Positions 5,931 to 40,820 of a DNA stretch of 64,000 nucleotides are shown in pieces (the stretch's first letter is position 1; the number at the start of each line of letters is the position of its first letter). The notes beneath the pieces are model-generated. The model ran no database searches. It was not told the origin of the DNA and was given only the letters and a program-made list of their open reading frames with translations. The translations under genes were made by a program, and so were the position numbers. This DNA comes from Escherichia phage vB_EcoM_G4498: sequence record NC_054918.1; one strand, 5' to 3'.

Positions 5931-6248
5931 TTAAGACGCTTGAATTTTACGTGTGTAAGCATCAATCATATCCTCAATTTGCGATCTAGTAGTCTTCCAA
6001 AGAATACTGATGAGTTCATCGTTATATGGCTGTTTTAGAATATCCCGACTTTTCTTGATAGCATATTCGTATTGAGCAAAATTATTATTTTCAGCCGCAA
6101 TCTGAGCATGCTTATAAAGACGATTCAGTTCGCGTTTGTTTTTAGACAATAACTTATTTGCTTTTCTTTCTGCTTCAAGACGGTTCTTTTCTTCAATAGA
6201 AGAAATAAGCTTTTCCACTTCATCATTAATTTCGGGTTTATCAATCAT
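5931..6248 (-). CDS. hypothetical protein (105 aa, charged/coiled-coil)
   Basis: ORF in operon orientation. Confidence 0.45.
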   Translation of the reverse strand: MIDKPEINDEVEKLISSIEEKNRLEAERKANKLLSKNKRELNRLYKHAQIAAENNNFAQYEYAIKKSRDILKQPYNDELISILWKTTRSQIEDMIDAYTRKIQAS

Positions 6249-31048: not shown

Positions 31049-31522
31049 TTATTTGAACGATTTAACGTACTGAATAGAACCTTTACTATTCACAAAGGCA
31101 ATTTTACCATTTTTGTTATACATAGTAGCAGTACGTTGATAACCGTAAGTTTGTTTACCAGATTGATAACCAACTAATGCGAAATTATCTTCACCCATTT
31201 TATTCTGTTTAGCGCGAATGCGTTCATGACCATGTGCCATAAGAACCTTAGCATCACCAGTTGCAATGGATCGACGAGTTTTTTCATCTTCAGCTGTATT
31301 AACAAAGTCGTCAAATGAATCAAATTTAGCATGAGATTTATTATACAGTTTTCCATCTACTGCATAATTATATCCTTGTACATCCATCTCAACTTCTGTA
31401 CCATCATCTAATACAGCAGTAATTTTCTGTCCTTTTTTAAATTTCAAAAGATCAGTAAAAGATTCAGCAATAATTTGAGAATTAATAGCTGCCTCAGTAA
31501 TAAATTCTTGATATGTTTTCAT
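31049..31522 (-). CDS. internal-protein-like protein with capsid-targeting leader (157 aa)
   Basis: N-terminus MKTYQEFITEA; AAAGGA SD. Confidence 0.65.
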   Translation of the reverse strand: MKTYQEFITEAAINSQIIAESFTDLLKFKKGQKITAVLDDGTEVEMDVQGYNYAVDGKLYNKSHAKFDSFDDFVNTAEDEKTRRSIATGDAKVLMAHGHERIRAKQNKMGEDNFALVGYQSGKQTYGYQRTATMYNKNGKIAFVNSKGSIQYVKSFK

Positions 31523-31630
31523 GTATATCCTTTAAATGTAAATAGTTTTATTCTTTAAGTTTTGGACAATTCACACGCATGAATTGTCCGTTTCTATATT
31601 TACCCATTACCAGGTTCGAACTCGGCTTTA

Positions 31631-32212
31631 TTAAGAATTACCGCGGGCTGCATTAGCAACGGCGTAAGCGTACTGAACATTAGCGTCTTTAAACGTACCT
31701 TTAGAGGTATCTATTTCTGCCCTAAAGCCGCCTTTAGTCATAACATCGGCAAATTCTTTACGGAAAGCCATTGCATCAAGACTTCTCCATGATGATTTGT
31801 GCTTGGCAAATTCAAGACCTGCGAAGTTGACAGCTTTAGCCAATTTATTATCAATGACCCATTTACCGGCTTTAGGCACAAACTTCGGGCCTTTTTGTTT
31901 AGAGAACAGTTTTAAATTCCAGCGACGAAGGTCACTGTCGGCTTTAACAAAAGCTGCGTCTAAGTTACTAGCAACAACATCTTCAATATGAGCAAATTTA
32001 AGTCCGTCAACTTCAATATTTAAATCGGTACGCCAGCGAAGTCCTTCCCATGCGAAGGCTTTAAAGTCAGAAGCCTTTGTAGCTAAGTACCGTTCAATAG
32101 GAGCTGTTTTAGGGTCAAAGCCGTTTCCCGATCGGTAGGTCCACTCATCTTTGTTAATGCCTTTGGCCTTTACTACAGAAGCTTCGGCAATAAATTCTTG
32201 ATAGGTTTTCAT
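31631..32212 (-). CDS. ipIII: internal protein III-like (193 aa) with capsid-targeting leader
   Basis: N-terminus MKTYQEFIAEA; 193 aa as T4 IPIII; AAGGAAA SD; own early promoter. Confidence 0.6.
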   Translation of the reverse strand: MKTYQEFIAEASVVKAKGINKDEWTYRSGNGFDPKTAPIERYLATKASDFKAFAWEGLRWRTDLNIEVDGLKFAHIEDVVASNLDAAFVKADSDLRRWNLKLFSKQKGPKFVPKAGKWVIDNKLAKAVNFAGLEFAKHKSSWRSLDAMAFRKEFADVMTKGGFRAEIDTSKGTFKDANVQYAYAVANAARGNS

Positions 32213-32238
32213 GTGTTTCCTTGTTTGTTTTGATAGAG

Positions 32239-32270
32239 TAATTATACCATATTAATACTTAAGCGTAAAC
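32239..32270 (-). promoter_or_regulatory. T4-type early promoter (-35 GTTTAC, -10 TATAAT)
   Basis: minus-strand GTTTACGCTTAAGTATTAATATGGTATAATTACTC. Confidence 0.55.
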
Positions 32271-32273
32271 CGT

Positions 32274-32534
32274 TTAAGCTTTACCGCCAGAAATAATTCC
32301 GAAGTTGTTAAAATCATATCCAATATCGTCAACATCTACTTTAGGACTTGCTACAACATAAGCAATTTCACTACGTTTTGCACAGGTGTTGATTTCTTTA
32401 CCATCGCCACCTAAGAAAGAATACCCATTACGTTTTAATGAGCCAAAGTCTTCCGCATCACCAATGAAAGCTTTAACTTTAAATTTAGAACCTTTGGCAT
32501 CTGCTTCAACGATAAATTCTTGATACATTTTCAT
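32274..32534 (-). CDS. internal-protein-like protein with capsid-targeting leader (86 aa)
   Basis: N-terminus MKMYQEFIVEA; AAGGAAAA SD directly after denV remnant stop. Confidence 0.6.
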   Translation of the reverse strand: MKMYQEFIVEADAKGSKFKVKAFIGDAEDFGSLKRNGYSFLGGDGKEINTCAKRSEIAYVVASPKVDVDDIGYDFNNFGIISGGKA

Positions 32535-32540
32535 TTTTCC

Positions 32541-32651
32541 TTAGTAAATTGATTTACCAAAGTATTTGTACCAAGTCGGACGTTGATCAATTTTTTCATC
32601 TAAGCGTGCTTGATTTATCGCAATGGACGCTTCGGACGGGTCATAATTTCC
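32541..32651 (-). pseudogene. denV: denV (endonuclease V, pyrimidine dimer glycosylase) 3' remnant, last ~36 codons only
   Basis: translation [36 protein letters not shown] matches the T4 DenV C-terminus as recalled; upstream sequence is promoter/IP-gene DNA, not denV. Confidence 0.6.
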
Positions 32652-32671
32652 TCCAAGTAGTTGATGAATGT

Positions 32672-32701
32672 ATAGTATCAAAACCCTTGGAGGAAGTAAA
32701 C
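32672..32701 (-). promoter_or_regulatory. T4-type early promoter (-35 GTTTAC, -10 TACTAT) inside the denV-remnant ORF
   Basis: minus-strand GTTTACTTCCTCCAAGGGTTTTGATACTATACATTC. Confidence 0.45.
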
Positions 32702-32703
32702 AA

Positions 32704-33944
<1,241 letters not shown>

Positions 33945-34307: not shown

Positions 34308-34702
34308 CGTGATTCCTTAACAAATTTCATAATTTCATTAAATTCATACTCAGCAAGTTTAATCTGGTGTTCCTTTTTAATCTTTTTACACTGTGCTTTC
34401 CAATCACGTACGCGTTTACGATAATGCCTTCCTTGATACCAGTATCCTACCCAATTTATAGGTACTAATAAAAATGGAACTATTAATGGAAGAATTAGCA
34501 TTAACACAAGTATTTCGCCAGAATCAATATCAGTCATAACATCTAAAACACCTCCAATAATCAATAGAATTACAAATGATATAAGTATAACAGGACCTAT
34601 TAATACATCAGTAGAAATTATCTGACGCTTTAATTCATACTTCAACGGTTTACTTGGAAGGTATAGTGATGGTTTTGACATATTCTCTACATTCCTTAAC
34701 AA
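34289..34702 (-). CDS. membrane protein (137 aa, two TM helices, basic C-terminus)
   Basis: VLIGPVILISFVILLIIGGVL and LVLMLILPLIVPFLLVPINWVGYWY. Confidence 0.45.
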   Translation of the reverse strand: MLRNVENMSKPSLYLPSKPLKYELKRQIISTDVLIGPVILISFVILLIIGGVLDVMTDIDSGEILVLMLILPLIVPFLLVPINWVGYWYQGRHYRKRVRDWKAQCKKIKKEHQIKLAEYEFNEIMKFVKESRCKSQN

Positions 34703-35258
34703 ATTTTTCTAGTAATAAATCACTTTCAAAATTAGGATTTTCCACTAATTTATCAAAAAGATCATCAACAATATTCAAGATATTTCTTTTACTAAGAATA
34801 CGTTTATTTTCATGCTTCGTTTCAGAATCAACTATAAGAGTAAAGAAATATTTCTTTCCCTGAAATTTTACTGTAGTATCAATATAGAATAAATTTGACT
34901 TTTGTAAGTTACGTTTAAACCATGCGTCACTTAAACTATAAACACCGAGATAATCAAAATCGTCGTTTAAATAACAAACTGTCCATTCAGGAGAAATGAA
35001 ATCAGTAAATTCAACATCAAAATCGCATGTCAATGAATAAATTGATTCAATACTGTTAATAAGTATTCCAGGACGTATTAAAGACTTTTTACCTCTGGAA
35101 AATCTTCCAGAAAGGCTTTCGTCTGTTTCATATGAAGAACCCCAATAATAATTACGTCCTTCTGCCATGCGTTTAAGAGCATTTAGCAATTGGTCTGGAA
35201 CATCAACCTGTCTTTGGAACTCTTCAAACATTGAATTGAAATCACTTTGCATTTTCAT
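34650..35258 (-). CDS. hypothetical protein (202 aa)
   Basis: ORF. Confidence 0.45.
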   Translation of the reverse strand: MKMQSDFNSMFEEFQRQVDVPDQLLNALKRMAEGRNYYWGSSYETDESLSGRFSRGKKSLIRPGILINSIESIYSLTCDFDVEFTDFISPEWTVCYLNDDFDYLGVYSLSDAWFKRNLQKSNLFYIDTTVKFQGKKYFFTLIVDSETKHENKRILSKRNILNIVDDLFDKLVENPNFESDLLLEKFVKECREYVKTITIPSK

Positions 35259-35299: not shown

Positions 35300-35893
35300 T
35301 TATTTCAGAGAATTAATGTATTCCTGAACATCGGCAGAGGTAGTTTCAACCCCAGAAATATTACCATTAAAGGTTTCAACTCGAGCAAGAGTATCTTCAA
35401 TATCAACCTTAGTCAGCGCTGCAATTTCAACTACATCATCAGCAGTACTAATTCCAAGGGCATTTGCTGCACGAGTTTCACGGATATATTCCAATTTAAC
35501 TGCAAGTTCTTGGCGAGCATCATCTAACTCAACTACTTTCTTGGCGATTTCAATTCGCATTTCAGCATAACCATCAGCTTTAGTAGTCAACTGTTCAGCT
35601 GTTCGACGATATAGCAAACCAAGTTTAGCATGCATTGTTACATCTTGACCTTCAGAAAGAAGCTTGCGAATTTCACGCTCTTTTGATTCGGCCTGCTTAT
35701 TCTTTTCGACAATAAGTTCACGAATACGCTTTTCTTCATTAATAGATTTAACAGAAGCAGTTTTTAGATCTTTAATCTTATCAAGTAGTTTTGCTGCCGC
35801 AGCAGTATACTGTTCTTCAACGGATAAATTTTTAGCCATAGCAGAACCAAGTTTAGTGCGAATAAACTCAACAATTTTCTTCAGTGTGTTCAT
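35300..35893 (-). CDS. coiled-coil protein (197 aa), weakly PspA/IM30-like in architecture
   Basis: long heptad-rich helical sequence; no diagnostic motif. Confidence 0.45.
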
Positions 35894-36626: not shown

Positions 36627-36653
36627 CCAAAAAGCCCTATCATTTAGATAGGG
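36627..36653 (-). terminator. rho-independent terminator (CCCTATC-taaat-GATAGGG + CUUUUUGG)
   Basis: hairpin and U-run immediately after stop of upstream IP-like gene. Confidence 0.6.
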
Positions 36654-36661
36654 ATTTAAAA

Positions 36662-37225
36662 TTATTTACATAGTTTAGTTATTATAGCTTCTGCAGCAGC
36701 TTTTAGCTTAGATGCGGTGTTAATACGATTTTTAATTTCAGTATATGCATCGCCAAGAACATCAAGGCTATCAGAATAAACACTTACACTATTGCGTTCG
36801 CTATTTGAAATAGAACCTTTAGTTTTACGATCAAAATCGGTATACACGTCTTGAAGATCGCGGGCTGCCTTCTTTGCATCATCCAATGCATCAAGAGCTT
36901 TATTCAAAGCATTGACATATTTTTTAGTGTCAAACATATTCTTAGAAATTTTAACAGGTGCACGTTCAGGAGTAGCTAATGCAGATTTAGAAACCTGAGC
37001 GCCAGATGCCAATTTCTTAGAAATTTTGAAAAATGCTTTATTGAAACTATTTTCTTGGCTCATCGTAAAAGAACTGTTATCGATGTTATACATTTCAATA
37101 GCTTTAGCTTTCCACTTAAGAAAATCGCCCCGGTCTTTTGGGTCCAAGTGGAAGAATACTTTAGTAAGATCTGCTTCAGATGGTAATTTTGCTGCTTCAG
37201 TTAAAAATTCGGCATAGGTTTTCAT
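36662..37225 (-). CDS. internal-protein-like protein with capsid-targeting leader (187 aa)
   Basis: N-terminus MKTYAEFLTEAA; AAGGA SD. Confidence 0.6.
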   Translation of the reverse strand: MKTYAEFLTEAAKLPSEADLTKVFFHLDPKDRGDFLKWKAKAIEMYNIDNSSFTMSQENSFNKAFFKISKKLASGAQVSKSALATPERAPVKISKNMFDTKKYVNALNKALDALDDAKKAARDLQDVYTDFDRKTKGSISNSERNSVSVYSDSLDVLGDAYTEIKNRINTASKLKAAAEAIITKLCK

Positions 37226-37294
37226 TTAAAATCCTTGAAATAATTTATTGGTTATTAATTATTTATTATCCGTAACAGCATTCTCTGAGTGATT

Positions 37295-37327
37295 CAAACT
37301 AAAAAGCCCCAACCTTTCGGTCAGGGC
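37295..37327 (-). terminator. rho-independent terminator ending the tRNA/stable-RNA transcription unit
   Basis: minus-strand GCCCUGACC-gaaa-GGUUGGGGC followed by UUUUUAGUUUG. Confidence 0.65.
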
Positions 37328-37380
37328 TAAGCCTTGCGGCAACCTTGTCGGGGTTCCACCTGCTAAGGCAAGTGTTTGTA

Positions 37381-37546
37381 CGAAACGCCGGGATTTGAAC
37401 CCGGTTATTAAGTAGTTGACGCTACTCAATATTTTTAAAAGGCCATATCTCGACCATATCCGAACGTTCCGTCAAAAACGCTACTCGGCTTATGGCAAAG
37501 ATATTTCCTCGAATCGATAATTCGGTGCGCCGTTTCTGCTGTAATA
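37381..37546 (-). ncRNA. candidate tRNA-like stable RNA (cf. T4 species 1/2 RNAs)
   Basis: non-coding stretch; minus-strand T-arm-like CCGGGTTCAAATCCCGG followed by CGTTTCG that can pair with GAAACG about 160 nt upstream; boundaries uncertain. Confidence 0.35.
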
Positions 37547-37635: not shown

Positions 37636-37986
37636 TTAATATTCTTTTAAAGCATCAATCTGTTCACGGCGTTTACGCCATAAATCAATTGCTTCATACG
37701 CGGATTCAGCATTTCGAATTAGCCGGCATTTATGTAAAGACTTATGATTTTGATATTGCGTAAATAACGAAATTTTATCTAAAAGGTCTTTACGATCAAA
37801 ATATTCGTAACCATCTAAACCAAATGAACGATTTTTGAGAAATTGCCAATGACCATATTCGTTTTCGACATAAACATAATCTGCATGCTGATAAAGTAAA
37901 TTAATTACACGTTCAGAAATAACAGTATCGTTATGATTAAAATAGAATGTTAAATCATGAACTACTAAATAGACATTACCTTTCAT
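37636..37986 (-). CDS. hypothetical protein (116 aa) between tRNA-Arg and the stable-RNA region
   Basis: GAGG SD before ATG at 37986; the longer track ORF would overlap tRNA-Arg. Confidence 0.5.
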   Translation of the reverse strand: MKGNVYLVVHDLTFYFNHNDTVISERVINLLYQHADYVYVENEYGHWQFLKNRSFGLDGYEYFDRKDLLDKISLFTQYQNHKSLHKCRLIRNAESAYEAIDLWRKRREQIDALKEY

Positions 37987-38004
37987 ATTTTCCTCACTTA
38001 TAAT

Positions 38005-38081
<77 letters not shown>

Positions 38082-38085
38082 TATT

Positions 38086-38160
38086 TGGCGGACGTGATAG
38101 GATTCGAACCTATAACCAATCGCTTAACAGGCGATCGCTCTGCCATTGAGCTACACATCC
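38086..38160 (-). tRNA. tRNA-Asn: tRNA-Asn (anticodon GTT), CCA encoded
   Basis: acceptor GGATGTG/CACGTCC, anticodon stem ATCGC/GCGAT, loop CUGUUAA, T-loop GGTTCGAATCC. Confidence 0.8.
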
Positions 38161-38164
38161 AAAT

Positions 38165-38251
38165 TGGTGGGGAGCGATGGAGTCGAACCACCCGAGTCGC
38201 AATGACAATGGATTTACAGTCCACACCGCTACCTCTACGGGATAACTCCCC
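38165..38251 (-). tRNA. tRNA-Tyr: tRNA-Tyr (anticodon GTA), long variable arm, CCA encoded
   Basis: acceptor GGGGAGT/GCTCCCC, anticodon loop CUGUAAA, long variable arm as in bacterial tRNA-Tyr. Confidence 0.75.
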
Positions 38252-38260
38252 TAATTAATT

Positions 38261-38335
38261 TGGTGGCCCTGGGTGGAATTGAACCACCATCTGGCGATTA
38301 TGAGTCGCTTGCTTGAACCTTCCAGCTACAGGGCC
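38261..38335 (-). tRNA. tRNA-Ile: tRNA with anticodon CAT (T4 tRNA-Ile position; Ile2 via lysidine, or Met)
   Basis: acceptor GGCCCTG/CAGGGCC, anticodon loop CUCAUAA; directly adjacent to tRNA-Thr as in the T4 Thr-Ile precursor. Confidence 0.8.
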
Positions 38336-38336
38336 T

Positions 38337-38412
38337 TGGTGCTGATTGACGGAATCGAACCGCCGACCTTCTCATTACAAGTGAGTTGCTCTACCTACTG
38401 AGCTAAATCAGC
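38337..38412 (-). tRNA. tRNA-Thr: tRNA-Thr (anticodon TGT), CCA encoded
   Basis: acceptor GCTGATT/AATCAGC, D-stem GCTC/GAGC, anticodon loop CUUGUAA. Confidence 0.85.
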
Positions 38413-38417
38413 AAAAC

Positions 38418-38507
38418 TGGCGGAGGCGATAGGATTTGAACCTATGAGTCGCCGGAGCGACTGCCGGTTTTCAAGACCGGTGCATTAAACCACTCTGCCA
38501 CGCCTCC
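38418..38507 (-). tRNA. tRNA-Ser: tRNA-Ser (anticodon TGA), type II, CCA encoded
   Basis: acceptor GGAGGCG/CGCCTCC, anticodon stem CCGGT/ACCGG, loop CUUGAAA, long variable arm. Confidence 0.85.
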
Positions 38508-38509
38508 AG

Positions 38510-38584
38510 TCTCCGTGACAGGATTTGAACCTACGACATTCTGCTCCCAAAGCAGACGCTCTACCAAACTGAGCTACACGGAGT
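38510..38584 (-). tRNA. tRNA-Pro: tRNA-Pro (anticodon TGG), CCA not encoded
   Basis: acceptor CTCCGTG/CACGGAG, anticodon loop UUUGGGA; abuts tRNA-Ser (dimeric precursor arrangement). Confidence 0.85.
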
Positions 38585-38593
38585 AAATTAAAT

Positions 38594-38667
<74 letters not shown>

Positions 38668-38672
38668 AAATT

Positions 38673-38759
38673 TGGTGCGAGAAGTGGGACTCGAACCCAC
38701 AAGGAAATCATTCCGCAGCATTTTAAGTGCTGTGCCTTTACCAATTTGACCATTCTCGC
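38673..38759 (-). tRNA. tRNA-Leu: tRNA-Leu (anticodon TAA), type II, CCA encoded
   Basis: acceptor GCGAGAA/TTCTCGC, anticodon stem CAGCA/TGCTG, loop CUUAAAA, long variable arm. Confidence 0.85.
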
Positions 38760-38760
38760 G

Positions 38761-38833
38761 CTGGGAATAAAGGACTCGAACCTTTGCATCCTGGAATCAA
38801 AATCCAGTGCCTTACCAACTTGGCTAATTCCCA
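38761..38833 (-). tRNA. tRNA-Gln: tRNA-Gln (anticodon TTG), CCA not encoded
   Basis: acceptor TGGGAAT/ATTCCCA, anticodon loop UUUUGAU; 1 nt from tRNA-Leu (dimeric precursor arrangement). Confidence 0.85.
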
Positions 38834-39875: not shown

Positions 39876-40112
39876 TTATTCAACACCAGCGGCTTTCAAA
39901 AGTTTCTTAAGATTGGCAACACCTTGAGCAGAAAATGTGACCTTTCCACCTTTTTCACTGATAGAACCAACCAATTTAGCAAGTTTATCATTAGGAATTT
40001 TTTTAAAATCAGCCAATGTCCCATCAAAGGTTTTTGAAACAAAAGGCAGTTCATCTTCATGTCTTTTAGCTTCTACAATAAATTTTTGATATGTTTCCAT
40101 TTTAGTTTCCAT
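39876..40112 (-). CDS. internal-protein-like protein with capsid-targeting-like leader (about 74-78 aa)
   Basis: N-terminus (METK)METYQKFIVEAK; start may be the second ATG at 40100. Confidence 0.5.
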   Translation of the reverse strand: METKMETYQKFIVEAKRHEDELPFVSKTFDGTLADFKKIPNDKLAKLVGSISEKGGKVTFSAQGVANLKKLLKAAGVE

Positions 40113-40135
40113 TTAGATGTTTTGTTTTGATAGGG

Positions 40136-40167
40136 TAATAATATCACTACCCCATCTAAAAGTAAAC
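40136..40167 (-). promoter_or_regulatory. T4-type early promoter (-35 GTTTAC, -10 TATTAT)
   Basis: minus-strand GTTTACTTTTAGATGGGGTAGTGATATTATTACC. Confidence 0.5.
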
Positions 40168-40177
40168 GGTTTATAAA

Positions 40178-40486
40178 CTATTTTATTCCGCGTGATGCAA
40201 TTGTGTTCTGCCGTTTAACGCCAGTTTGTTTAAAGTCATGATTGTCGATTTGATCGGTACGAGCAACTCCGAATGATGATTTGATTTTAGCCTTAGATCC
40301 TTTAGTTATAGAAATAAACATCTCGGAAGCCCCTTTCTTAAAGTCCGAGGCGATTACTTCAACGCCGTTCTTAGCAAGTGACTTCAGAATTGCCTCTGCA
40401 TACTCATCGTCAAGACTCGTCTGAGTATTAATAACGAATGTCTTTGGCGCAGCCGCTTCATTGATAAATTCTTTAAATGTTTTCAT
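40178..40486 (-). CDS. internal-protein-like protein with capsid-targeting-like leader (102 aa)
   Basis: N-terminus MKTFKEFINEAA; AGGAAAA SD. Confidence 0.55.
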   Translation of the reverse strand: MKTFKEFINEAAAPKTFVINTQTSLDDEYAEAILKSLAKNGVEVIASDFKKGASEMFISITKGSKAKIKSSFGVARTDQIDNHDFKQTGVKRQNTIASRGIK

Positions 40487-40515
40487 TTTTATTTTCCTAA
40501 TTAATTTTGATGAGA

Positions 40516-40547
40516 TAATAGTACCACAACCCTATTTAAAAGTAAAC
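40516..40547 (-). promoter_or_regulatory. T4-type early promoter (-35 GTTTAC, -10 TACTAT)
   Basis: minus-strand GTTTACTTTTAAATAGGGTTGTGGTACTATTATC. Confidence 0.5.
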
Positions 40548-40820
40548 TCATTTTAAATAAATTGCGTATTTTTTATAACCCGCTGACTCATGACGAAGAC
40601 CATTATCATTAGCAAAACGCTCAATGTTGTTAATTTGATTCTGGTCAAGTTCAGAGATGTCAAACACGAAAAAGTTACGTTTGTTACCAACTGTTACATA
40701 GTCAGTTAAATCAATATCATATAGGTAATTGATGTCAGCAATCAAAGTCTTGACAGCTTTGCTAATTTTTACTTTTTCGTTAAAAGCAGCTTCAGCAATA
40801 AATTCTTGATACGTTTTCAT
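40548..40820 (-). CDS. ipI: internal protein I-like (about 90 aa) with capsid-targeting leader
   Basis: start at MKTYQEFIAEAAF (GGAGAA SD); immediately downstream of 57B as T4 ipI. Confidence 0.6.
   Translation of the reverse strand: MKTYQEFIAEAAFNEKVKISKAVKTLIADINYLYDIDLTDYVTVGNKRNFFVFDISELDQNQINNIERFANDNGLRHESAGYKKYAIYLK

Follow-up and report, generated by a model that had tools for sequence, protein, structure and literature searches.

Does a T4-like phage genome hold a gene for an internal head protein outside the loci where such genes are classically found? Internal proteins are the first phage proteins in the host cytoplasm and, to our knowledge, all those whose targets are known inhibit type IV restriction enzymes. 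The question is raised by a complete gene of 187 codons plus TAA, starting with ATG, at 36662..37225 on the minus strand of a 64,000-nt stretch of Escherichia phage vB_EcoM_G4498 (NC_054918.1), hereafter called the window. The open reading frame (ORF) is real. Its product begins with MKTYAEFLTEAAKLPSE (MKTYAEFLTEAA), and an earlier note made from the DNA letters alone had ascribed to it a leader like those that target proteins to the capsid. Labelled a hypothetical protein in HY03, RB14, Bas37, G50 and others, the gene appears from its sequence to be an internal-protein gene without that label, placed at a third and polymorphic locus. With moderate confidence, we regard it as encoding a late-made, protease-trimmed and injected internal head protein, most likely directed against host defence. 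Packaging and processing of the product are, in our judgment, highly probable; given packaging, analogy with known internal proteins tips the balance towards an anti-defence role.

The leader and its predicted processing

The first ten codons (37196..37225, minus strand) encode MKTYAEFLTE, a predicted capsid-targeting propeptide with cleavage predicted after Glu10, between LTE and Ala. Mutagenesis of IPIII has assigned residues 4 and 7 to targeting and residues 8 and 10 to processing (Mullaney and Black 1996, as summarised in PMC9026906), and MKTYAEFLTE agrees with all four mapped positions, carrying Y4, F7, L8 and E10, and then Ala11. The 187-residue protein has the aromatic residue at position 4 and the Phe at position 7 that characterize capsid targeting, and the motif of the protease gp21, (L/I)-x-E plus a small residue, is present as L8-T9-E10 followed by A11. 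No [LI]xE motif other than the LTE of residues 8-10 occurs in the protein, and cleavage by gp21 would accordingly be confined to removal of the leader. The T4 record shows MKTYQEFIAE in both ipII and ipIII and MKTFKEF...ITE in ipI, the three leader genes that the earlier note had attributed to T4.

The leader is retained by all family members examined. All 24 distinct N-termini in our family alignment, drawn from Tequatro-, Mosig-, Karam- and Winklervirus and from Klebsiella phages, have [YF]4, [FI]7 and [LI]8, and E10 is nearly invariant, although the bodies of these proteins are only ~15-25% identical to that of the 187-residue protein. Within the window, the pattern M-x-x-[YFW]-x-[EDKQ]-[FIL]-[LIVM]-x-[ED] at the start of ORFs of at least 40 aa occurs in 8 ORFs, all on the minus strand, whereas 200 block shuffles gave a mean of 0.01 and a maximum of 1. 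Four of them lie beside gene e (31049-32985, minus strand) and three at the ipI locus (39876-40820, minus strand), ~3.7 kb and ~2.7 kb away, respectively, so the gene does stand apart from the other leader clusters as had been claimed. The previous count of nine leader genes has to be lowered to eight (4 + 1 + 3), as looser patterns add none. Together, the excess over the shuffled sequence and the family-wide retention make a coincidental resemblance, the objection that the note had raised against itself, very unlikely; the match at the four IPIII positions points, as the note had held, to a genuine leader of the capsid-targeting type.

The other leader genes of the window have features of their own. 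The three at the ipI locus, arranged in tandem and encoding 90, 102 and 74 aa, are each preceded by an early-type promoter of their own (GTTTAC-N17-TAnnAT), and beyond the leader no orthology links any of them to T4 ipI; the third starts with METYQKFIVE, a weaker leader with K at position 6. Beside gene e, the ATG of a 93-aa leader gene (32704-32985) overlaps the TGA stop codon of this lysozyme gene as ATGA at 32982-32985, which suggests that the two are translationally coupled. Gene e itself has two TATAAATA boxes just 5' of it, at 33484-33504.

Putative late promoter and terminators

A late-promoter-like box, AATAAATA, lies at 37260..37267 on the minus strand, 34 nt upstream of the ATG; the T4 consensus is TATAAATA. 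Among T4 late promoters, A for T at position -13 is the commonest variant, found in 9 of 50 listed sites (PMC2988020). In all six homologues checked, the core ATAAATA occurs 25-38 nt 5' of the start codon and after a terminator hairpin, the box reading TATAAATA in the Karamvirus and Mosigvirus JQD51 homologues, CATAAATA in that of a Klebsiella phage, GATAAATA in those of Winklervirus and RB14, and AATAAATA in RB69. A Shine-Dalgarno sequence, AAGGA, is read directly at 37232..37236 (minus strand), with 6 nt separating it from the ATG. Neither a middle (MotA) nor a sigma-70 early promoter is supported, as the 73 nt from the terminator to the ATG are without GTTTAC-N17-TAnnnT, an early promoter that does precede the ipI-locus genes and e.8. 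From the putative promoter we infer that the gene is expressed late.

Upstream, the terminator that ends the tRNA/rnaD/rnaC unit (37305..37328, minus strand) has a 10-bp stem with 6 G-C pairs followed by TTTTT (-17.7 kcal/mol) and is identical in sequence to the T4 terminator downstream of rnaC. Downstream, the gene has its own intrinsic terminator (36635..36653, minus strand), a 7-bp stem followed by CTTTTT (-10.5 kcal/mol), whose counterpart is annotated as a terminator in phage G50. Both hairpins are on the strand of the gene, which bears out the claim that it is flanked by terminators on both sides. The statement that the gene lies directly upstream of the stable-RNA terminator is true in plus-strand coordinates but fails in the sense of transcription, where the gene is immediately downstream of it.

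These features suggest the following course of events. As judged from motif and conservation, the rnaC terminator would shield the gene from early and middle transcription, and a late single-gene mRNA would start from the AATAAATA promoter of the gp55 type and end at the gene's own terminator. By analogy with the IPIII mutagenesis, MKTYAEFLTE would act as a capsid-targeting sequence that takes the product to the scaffolding core of the assembling prohead, where the prohead protease gp21 would cut once after Glu10 to leave a lysine-rich protein of 177 residues. This mature protein would stay with the packaged DNA and enter the host alongside it where, purely by analogy, it would most likely disarm a DNA-directed defence as Ip1-3 and Bas37_0260 do.

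Comparison with known internal proteins

The 187-aa gene product resembles T4 IPIII (Ip3), whose orthologue is encoded at 31631-32212 of the window, in its 10-residue MKTY-EF[IL]-E leader followed by Ala and in its single gp21 motif; both genes are on the minus strand in the e/tRNA region. Mature IPIII has 183 aa, 20.4 kDa, a pI of 9.7 and a charge of +10, as compared with 177 aa, 19.6 kDa, a pI of 9.4 and a net charge of +8 (with 25 Lys) predicted for the mature 187-aa gene product, which would begin at Ala11 with AAKLPSEADLTK. Past the leader, nevertheless, the two proteins show no detectable homology, the hhalign alignment (50% probability) being limited to the first 26 residues. Unlike ipIII, which has an early-type promoter (GTTTAC-N17-TATAAT), the 187-aa gene has only the late-type box behind a strong terminator. 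For Ip3 the target is known (GmrSD of ECOR17, on which IPIII is required for growth). More generally, similarity to the window IpIII and Ip4-like proteins is confined to the leader (hhalign), and none of the T4 ip genes matches the 187-aa gene in BLAST.

Sharing the leader alone is, however, the rule of this class. Ip1 blocks GmrSD of CT596, and Ip2 (GmrSD/BrxU of ECOR21) and Ip3 block two other, unrelated GmrSD enzymes without cross-protection; 'ip4-10' were tested in the same study and their targets were not found (Silas et al. 2025, PMC12373910). McrBC is the target of another leader protein, Bas37_0260 (preprint 10.1101/2025.11.20.689424). Ip1, Ip2 and Bas37_0260, all of them injected inhibitors of type IV restriction, have only the N-terminal packaging leader in common, and their genes occupy polymorphic, cassette-like loci. 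They differ from the 187-aa gene product in being small (~75-100 aa) and encoded at the ipI or ipII/III loci, whereas the latter is larger, encoded at a third locus and conserved across genera. One of ip4-10 may be the same protein as ours. The ip1-ip10 catalogue of this recent screen appears to be drawn from the two classical loci. A third locus and a whole family would thus be added to the internal-protein repertoire, and the family becomes a candidate for orphan defence phenotypes against T-even phages.

Predicted structure and database searches

AlphaFold2 run with a 26-sequence alignment gave a model with a mean pLDDT of 79; a single-sequence model (pLDDT 60) was dropped in its favour. 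Residues 11-75 (37001..37195, minus strand) are modelled as an N-terminal helical domain that is conserved across the family (12-73 in the model; pLDDT 73-88; helices 17-24, 35-46 and 55-73). Residues 76-98 (36932..37000, minus strand) are a basic linker with net charge +3 that is predicted to be disordered (pLDDT <50 at 77-90); its length varies among homologues, those of other genera having a longer version with many Pro, Ala and Lys residues. Residues 99-187 (36665..36931, minus strand) form a C-terminal three-helix bundle that is confident in the model (101-186).

The searches point to a family of its own. In Pfam nothing exceeded the cut-off, the best hit being cytochrome b562 with 17.5 bits against a cut-off of 30, and NCBIfam gave no match. 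A profile search of PDB sequences reached a best E of 0.026; Foldseek found no match with E <2 in the PDB and only family members in BFVD. The PDB searches gave no match even though the structure of IPI* has been solved. A clear match was obtained with phrog_2280, of 'unknown function' (E = 3.1e-53; residues 1-181 aligned with 1-178 of the 178 profile positions), to which all 26 aligned family members belong by the same search.

A polymorphic site between the rnaC terminator and e.8

The gene is contained in a cassette of 672 nt (36629..37300, minus strand) that T4 and T2 lack; the 9-nt repeat GGGCTTTTT marks its ends. The cassette consists of the AATAAATA box, the Shine-Dalgarno sequence, the ORF and its own terminator, and its 5' and 3' boundaries are the two terminators described above. 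In T4, ggttggggcttttt is joined directly to ggtatctaagcc, so that the rnaC terminator runs straight into the e.8 promoter region. In the window, ggttggggcttttt is followed instead by agtttgaatc, the gene and gatagggcttttt, before the sequence resumes with ggtatctaggcc; BLAST accordingly matches the T4 intergenic region as two blocks on either side of the cassette. The site is a third one, outside the classical ip loci (57B/ipI, and e/denV with ipII/III). To lie at one of the classical loci is customary for ip genes but not required for their function.

The occupancy of this site varies among phages. It is empty in T4, T2, PST and the Mosigvirus LF82-4, and in the window, HY03, RB14 and RB69 it holds the 187-aa gene only. 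PhiZZ6 has only a 157-aa leader gene, behind a TATAAATA box and between two copies of the rnaC terminator, and the Mosigvirus KAW3E185 has only a similar gene of 154 aa. Both genes stand in tandem in Bas37 (KarlGJung) and G50. Four occupancy states are thus seen, within Tequatrovirus and within Mosigvirus, and such variation is typical of ip loci. Terminator repeats of 9 to 36 nt lie at all junctions of the site. As far as the sequences tell, the T4 layout can be derived from a Bas37-like one by recombination between the two GGGCTTTTTGGTAT repeats, and the window layout by recombination between two 31-nt terminator copies.

Modular shuffling in T4-like genomes is mediated by PeSL and PmSL elements, which combine stem-loop and promoter motifs (Arbiol 2010; Comeau, Arbiol and Krisch 2014, PMC4122927). 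As in these elements, single genes stand between repeated terminator stem-loops, the upstream of which is directly followed by a promoter, and recombination between the repeats accounts for the pattern of presence and absence. The cassette departs from the described elements, which have early or middle promoters, in its late-type promoter (the term 'late promoter' is not used in PMC4122927) and in its repeated unit, a 31-36-nt copy of the rnaC terminator. By its layout, the cassette is a putative late-promoter variant of the PeSL-type element. As a combination of terminator and late promoter, it would carry the stem-loop/promoter shuffling model over to late genes.

The second gene of the site, of 157 aa (bas37_0244, G50_00134, PhiZZ6 gp136, KAW3E185_00141), is a distant full-length paralogue of the 187-aa gene (hhalign probability 96%, E = 2e-9). 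The two genes are also alike in the leader (MKSY[AT][QE]FL[NT]E in the paralogue), in having a box of the form TATAAATA or AATAAATA and a terminator of their own, and in the point of insertion. On the other hand, the paralogue is only ~22% identical, shorter and absent from the window, and it is dispensable in Bas37.

Conservation of the family

From a word-indexed search, which returned only near-identical proteins (at least 90% identity throughout), the family seemed to be an orphan; an exhaustive phmmer search overturned this picture. The window allele itself is found in 163 phage records with amino-acid identities of ~86-99.5% (at least 95% in 162 records), invariably labelled 'hypothetical protein' or 'Phage protein'. 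Beyond these, phmmer revealed a 204-aa relative that starts with MITFNEFLNE and aligns end to end at 30% identity, and tblastn with this relative matched 349 phage records of Tequatro-, Mosig-, Karam-, Winkler- and Dhakavirus and of T4-like phages of Klebsiella, Kosakonia, Erwinia and Serratia. Four diverse genomes were opened, and in each the homologue occupied the same position, after the tRNA cluster and before the e.8/e.6/e.5 block. The homologues so placed in Mosig-, Karam- and Winklervirus and in T4-like phages of Klebsiella have identities of ~20-30%. The region examined in ValerieMcCarty03 held no homologue. The ratio dN/dS among Tequatrovirus alleles is 0.03-0.13. The family thus appears to be conserved, syntenic and under purifying selection, and the 187-aa gene no stray extra copy. 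Because the gene is syntenic across genera, the empty site of T4 is most simply explained by a deletion.

Exchange and decay have both left traces. The RB69 allele is 97% identical in amino acids to the Tequatrovirus allele, while the RB69 flanks are only 68-76% identical to the window, a gap that implies recent exchange. The reference copy of RB69 is split by a 1-nt deletion, and split or truncated copies also occur in the G4500, KRT47, ESh32 and HZ_ZJUN4 records. We found no mention in the literature of the locus tags RB69ORF149c, Shfl2p135 or bas37_0243. A metagenome-derived 118-aa protein, P0011, consists of residues 97-122 of the 187-aa product fused in frame to unrelated sequence and may represent a natural deletion starting inside the gene. 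A single nucleotide, in codon 186 (36668-36670), distinguishes the window allele from that of HY03; the codon specifies Cys in the window (KLCK), Gly in HY03, RB14 and Bas37, and Asp in G50.

Insertion data from Bas37 and a possible housekeeping role

KarlGJung is Bas37, and the orthologue of the 187-aa gene there is bas37_0243. A supplementary table of transposon sequencing (Tn-seq) data lists this gene as Essential, with 1 of 48 TA sites hit (preprint 10.1101/2025.11.20.689424). By contrast, its neighbours are saturated with insertions and listed as Non-essential: the paralogue bas37_0244 at 29/34 sites, bas37_0242 (e.8) at 23/23 and bas37_0245 at 33/38. The difference also holds for the leader gene bas37_0260, hit at 15/15 TA sites on a restriction-deleted strain. 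Mean read counts of 0.2 for bas37_0243 are comparable with the 0.0 of true essential genes, so that unusually low counts do not set it apart; nor can multi-mapping reads be the cause, as the gene is single-copy in every record. The text of the preprint does not comment on this score. Possible explanations are a real requirement in the Bas37 background, toxic truncation products, or loss of the gene from the library stock. Universal essentiality is argued against, because T4, T2 and LF82-4 are without the gene and RB69 and a few other records have disrupted copies.

The evidence on dispensability is therefore mixed, with absence from T4 and T2 and the frameshift in RB69 on one side and the single hit in bas37_0243 on the other. 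Taken at face value, the score would make this the first capsid-targeted internal protein indispensable to a T-even phage on ordinary E. coli K-12, a conclusion that we consider doubtful. The protein might then counter an unrecognised barrier in restriction-deleted K-12, which T4 and T2 would evade otherwise, or be a conserved head component that handles DNA; the late-promoter/terminator cassette downstream of the tRNA genes would in that case be the ancestral layout, lost by T4. If the score is real, the view of internal proteins as dispensable accessories needs revision, and a hidden E. coli K-12 barrier or a structural role becomes directly testable. Conservation and the Bas37 score together set the gene above a routine extra ip gene in interest.

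In the HIDEN-SEQ tables, two neighbours of the gene also stand out. The orthologues of e.5 and e.6 in Bas37, bas37_0239 and bas37_0240 (window 34650-35258 and 35300-35893, minus strand), are strongly depleted, with log2 fold changes of -3.6 and -6.5 (q = 0), in one comparison of K-12 with a clinical isolate, apparently from the CFT073 sheet. Both are labelled 'conserved hypothetical' and may be host-specific fitness or anti-defence genes.

Several observations weigh against a late, packaged protein with an anti-defence role. Known ip genes vary strongly and are dispensable, whereas members of this family keep their position from genus to genus and evolve under strong purifying selection, and the 'Essential' call for bas37_0243 suits a housekeeping role better than a strain-specific anti-restriction factor. 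The protein shows no sequence or fold similarity to known anti-restriction proteins in Pfam, NCBIfam, the PDB, Foldseek or hhalign comparisons. The annotation of RB14 names Ip4, Ip5 and ipI but leaves the 187-aa gene 'hypothetical'. Virion proteomics of any family member was not found in the literature (the fPS paper has none, that on Sfk20 has SDS-PAGE only, and that on ECLFM1 gives no protein list). Finally, the late-box 8-mer is not enriched in the window, with 18 occurrences against 24.5 expected; as this count is not above chance, the support for the promoter comes from its conserved position and not from statistics.

Alternatively, the protein might be a packaged housekeeping component, brought to the prohead core and trimmed as described above, that serves DNA charge neutralisation, genome organisation, contact with the capsid or portal, or DNA exit, and is required in some backgrounds. 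Such a role is consistent with the same gene position in at least four genera and in further Klebsiella, Kosakonia and Erwinia phages, with the low dN/dS, with the insertion profile of bas37_0243 amid saturated neighbours, and with a basic, lysine-rich mature protein whose linker is rich in Pro, Ala and Lys in other genera. For T4 Ip3, binding to residual DNA as well as to the inside of the capsid wall has been observed (preprint 10.64898/2026.03.06.709160). Yet phages with an empty site (T4, T2, PST and LF82-4) are fully viable, the ORF is split in RB69 and split or truncated in the four other records named above, and the 'Essential' call, undiscussed by its authors, has trivial alternative explanations. 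We therefore rate a housekeeping function as possible but rather unlikely, and retain the injected anti-defence protein as the preferred interpretation.

Alternatives to a mature internal protein

The leader could in principle be a remnant, left by common ancestry or by recombination with ip genes, on a late protein that is not packaged and acts in the cytoplasm. Leader DNA is a known recombination joint between ip genes (Repoila 1994, as reported in papers citing it), and passive gain would be possible. A relic would be expected to decay, however, and here the four functional positions persist at ~20% identity of the bodies. Moreover, of the 36 nt of its leader DNA, the 187-aa gene shares only 22-28 with the other seven leaders of the window, too few for a scar of recent recombination. 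The lack of any further [LI]xE in the 177 residues suggests exposure to gp21, and the predicted late timing fits prohead assembly. We thus consider it improbable that the protein is not packaged.

An assembly-only core factor that enters the prohead by means of the leader, shapes or fills the head like gp67, gp68 or the scaffold and is then expelled or degraded is very improbable: other prohead core proteins are also gp21 substrates (PMC9026906) and such a role could account for the 'Essential' call, but scaffold proteins are cut to small peptides, whereas a protein with one protease motif would survive maturation intact, and T4 and T2, with nearly identical head genes, do without the gene.

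Neighbouring genes

In the 2 kb around the gene, identity is 99.6% with Escherichia phage HY03 and 92-96% with many other genomes of Tequatrovirus, the genus to which the window is assigned. The gene order (minus strand) is that of T4: ten tRNA genes (38833-38005, minus strand), rnaD and rnaC precede the 187-aa gene, which is followed by e.8, e.6 and e.5, on to nudE and e, and then by the ip gene cluster. The rnaC gene (37379-37517, minus strand) is 97.8% identical to that of T4.

The tRNA genes number ten as against eight in T4, the extra ones being tRNA-Asn and tRNA-Tyr. A tRNA gene with a CAT anticodon is called Met in the window, while its counterparts in T4 and RB14 are annotated as Ile. 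No segB homing endonuclease gene is present at the tRNA region (38005-38833). A 116-aa ORF (37636-37986, minus strand) lies between tRNA-Arg and rnaD, which are adjacent RNA genes in T4. It is kept in RB69 (ORF150c), Bas37 (bas37_0245) and G50, always as hypothetical; its longest reading, from a TTG at 38034, would overlap tRNA-Arg.

The identity between the window and the HY03 record (NC_031047) ends at the end of this ORF, near window position 37990, so the window is not simply HY03. Past that point (locus position 5990), the place of the tRNA cluster is taken in the HY03 record by an Alt-like gene of opposite orientation, which may reflect either a rearrangement or an assembly artefact in NC_031047.

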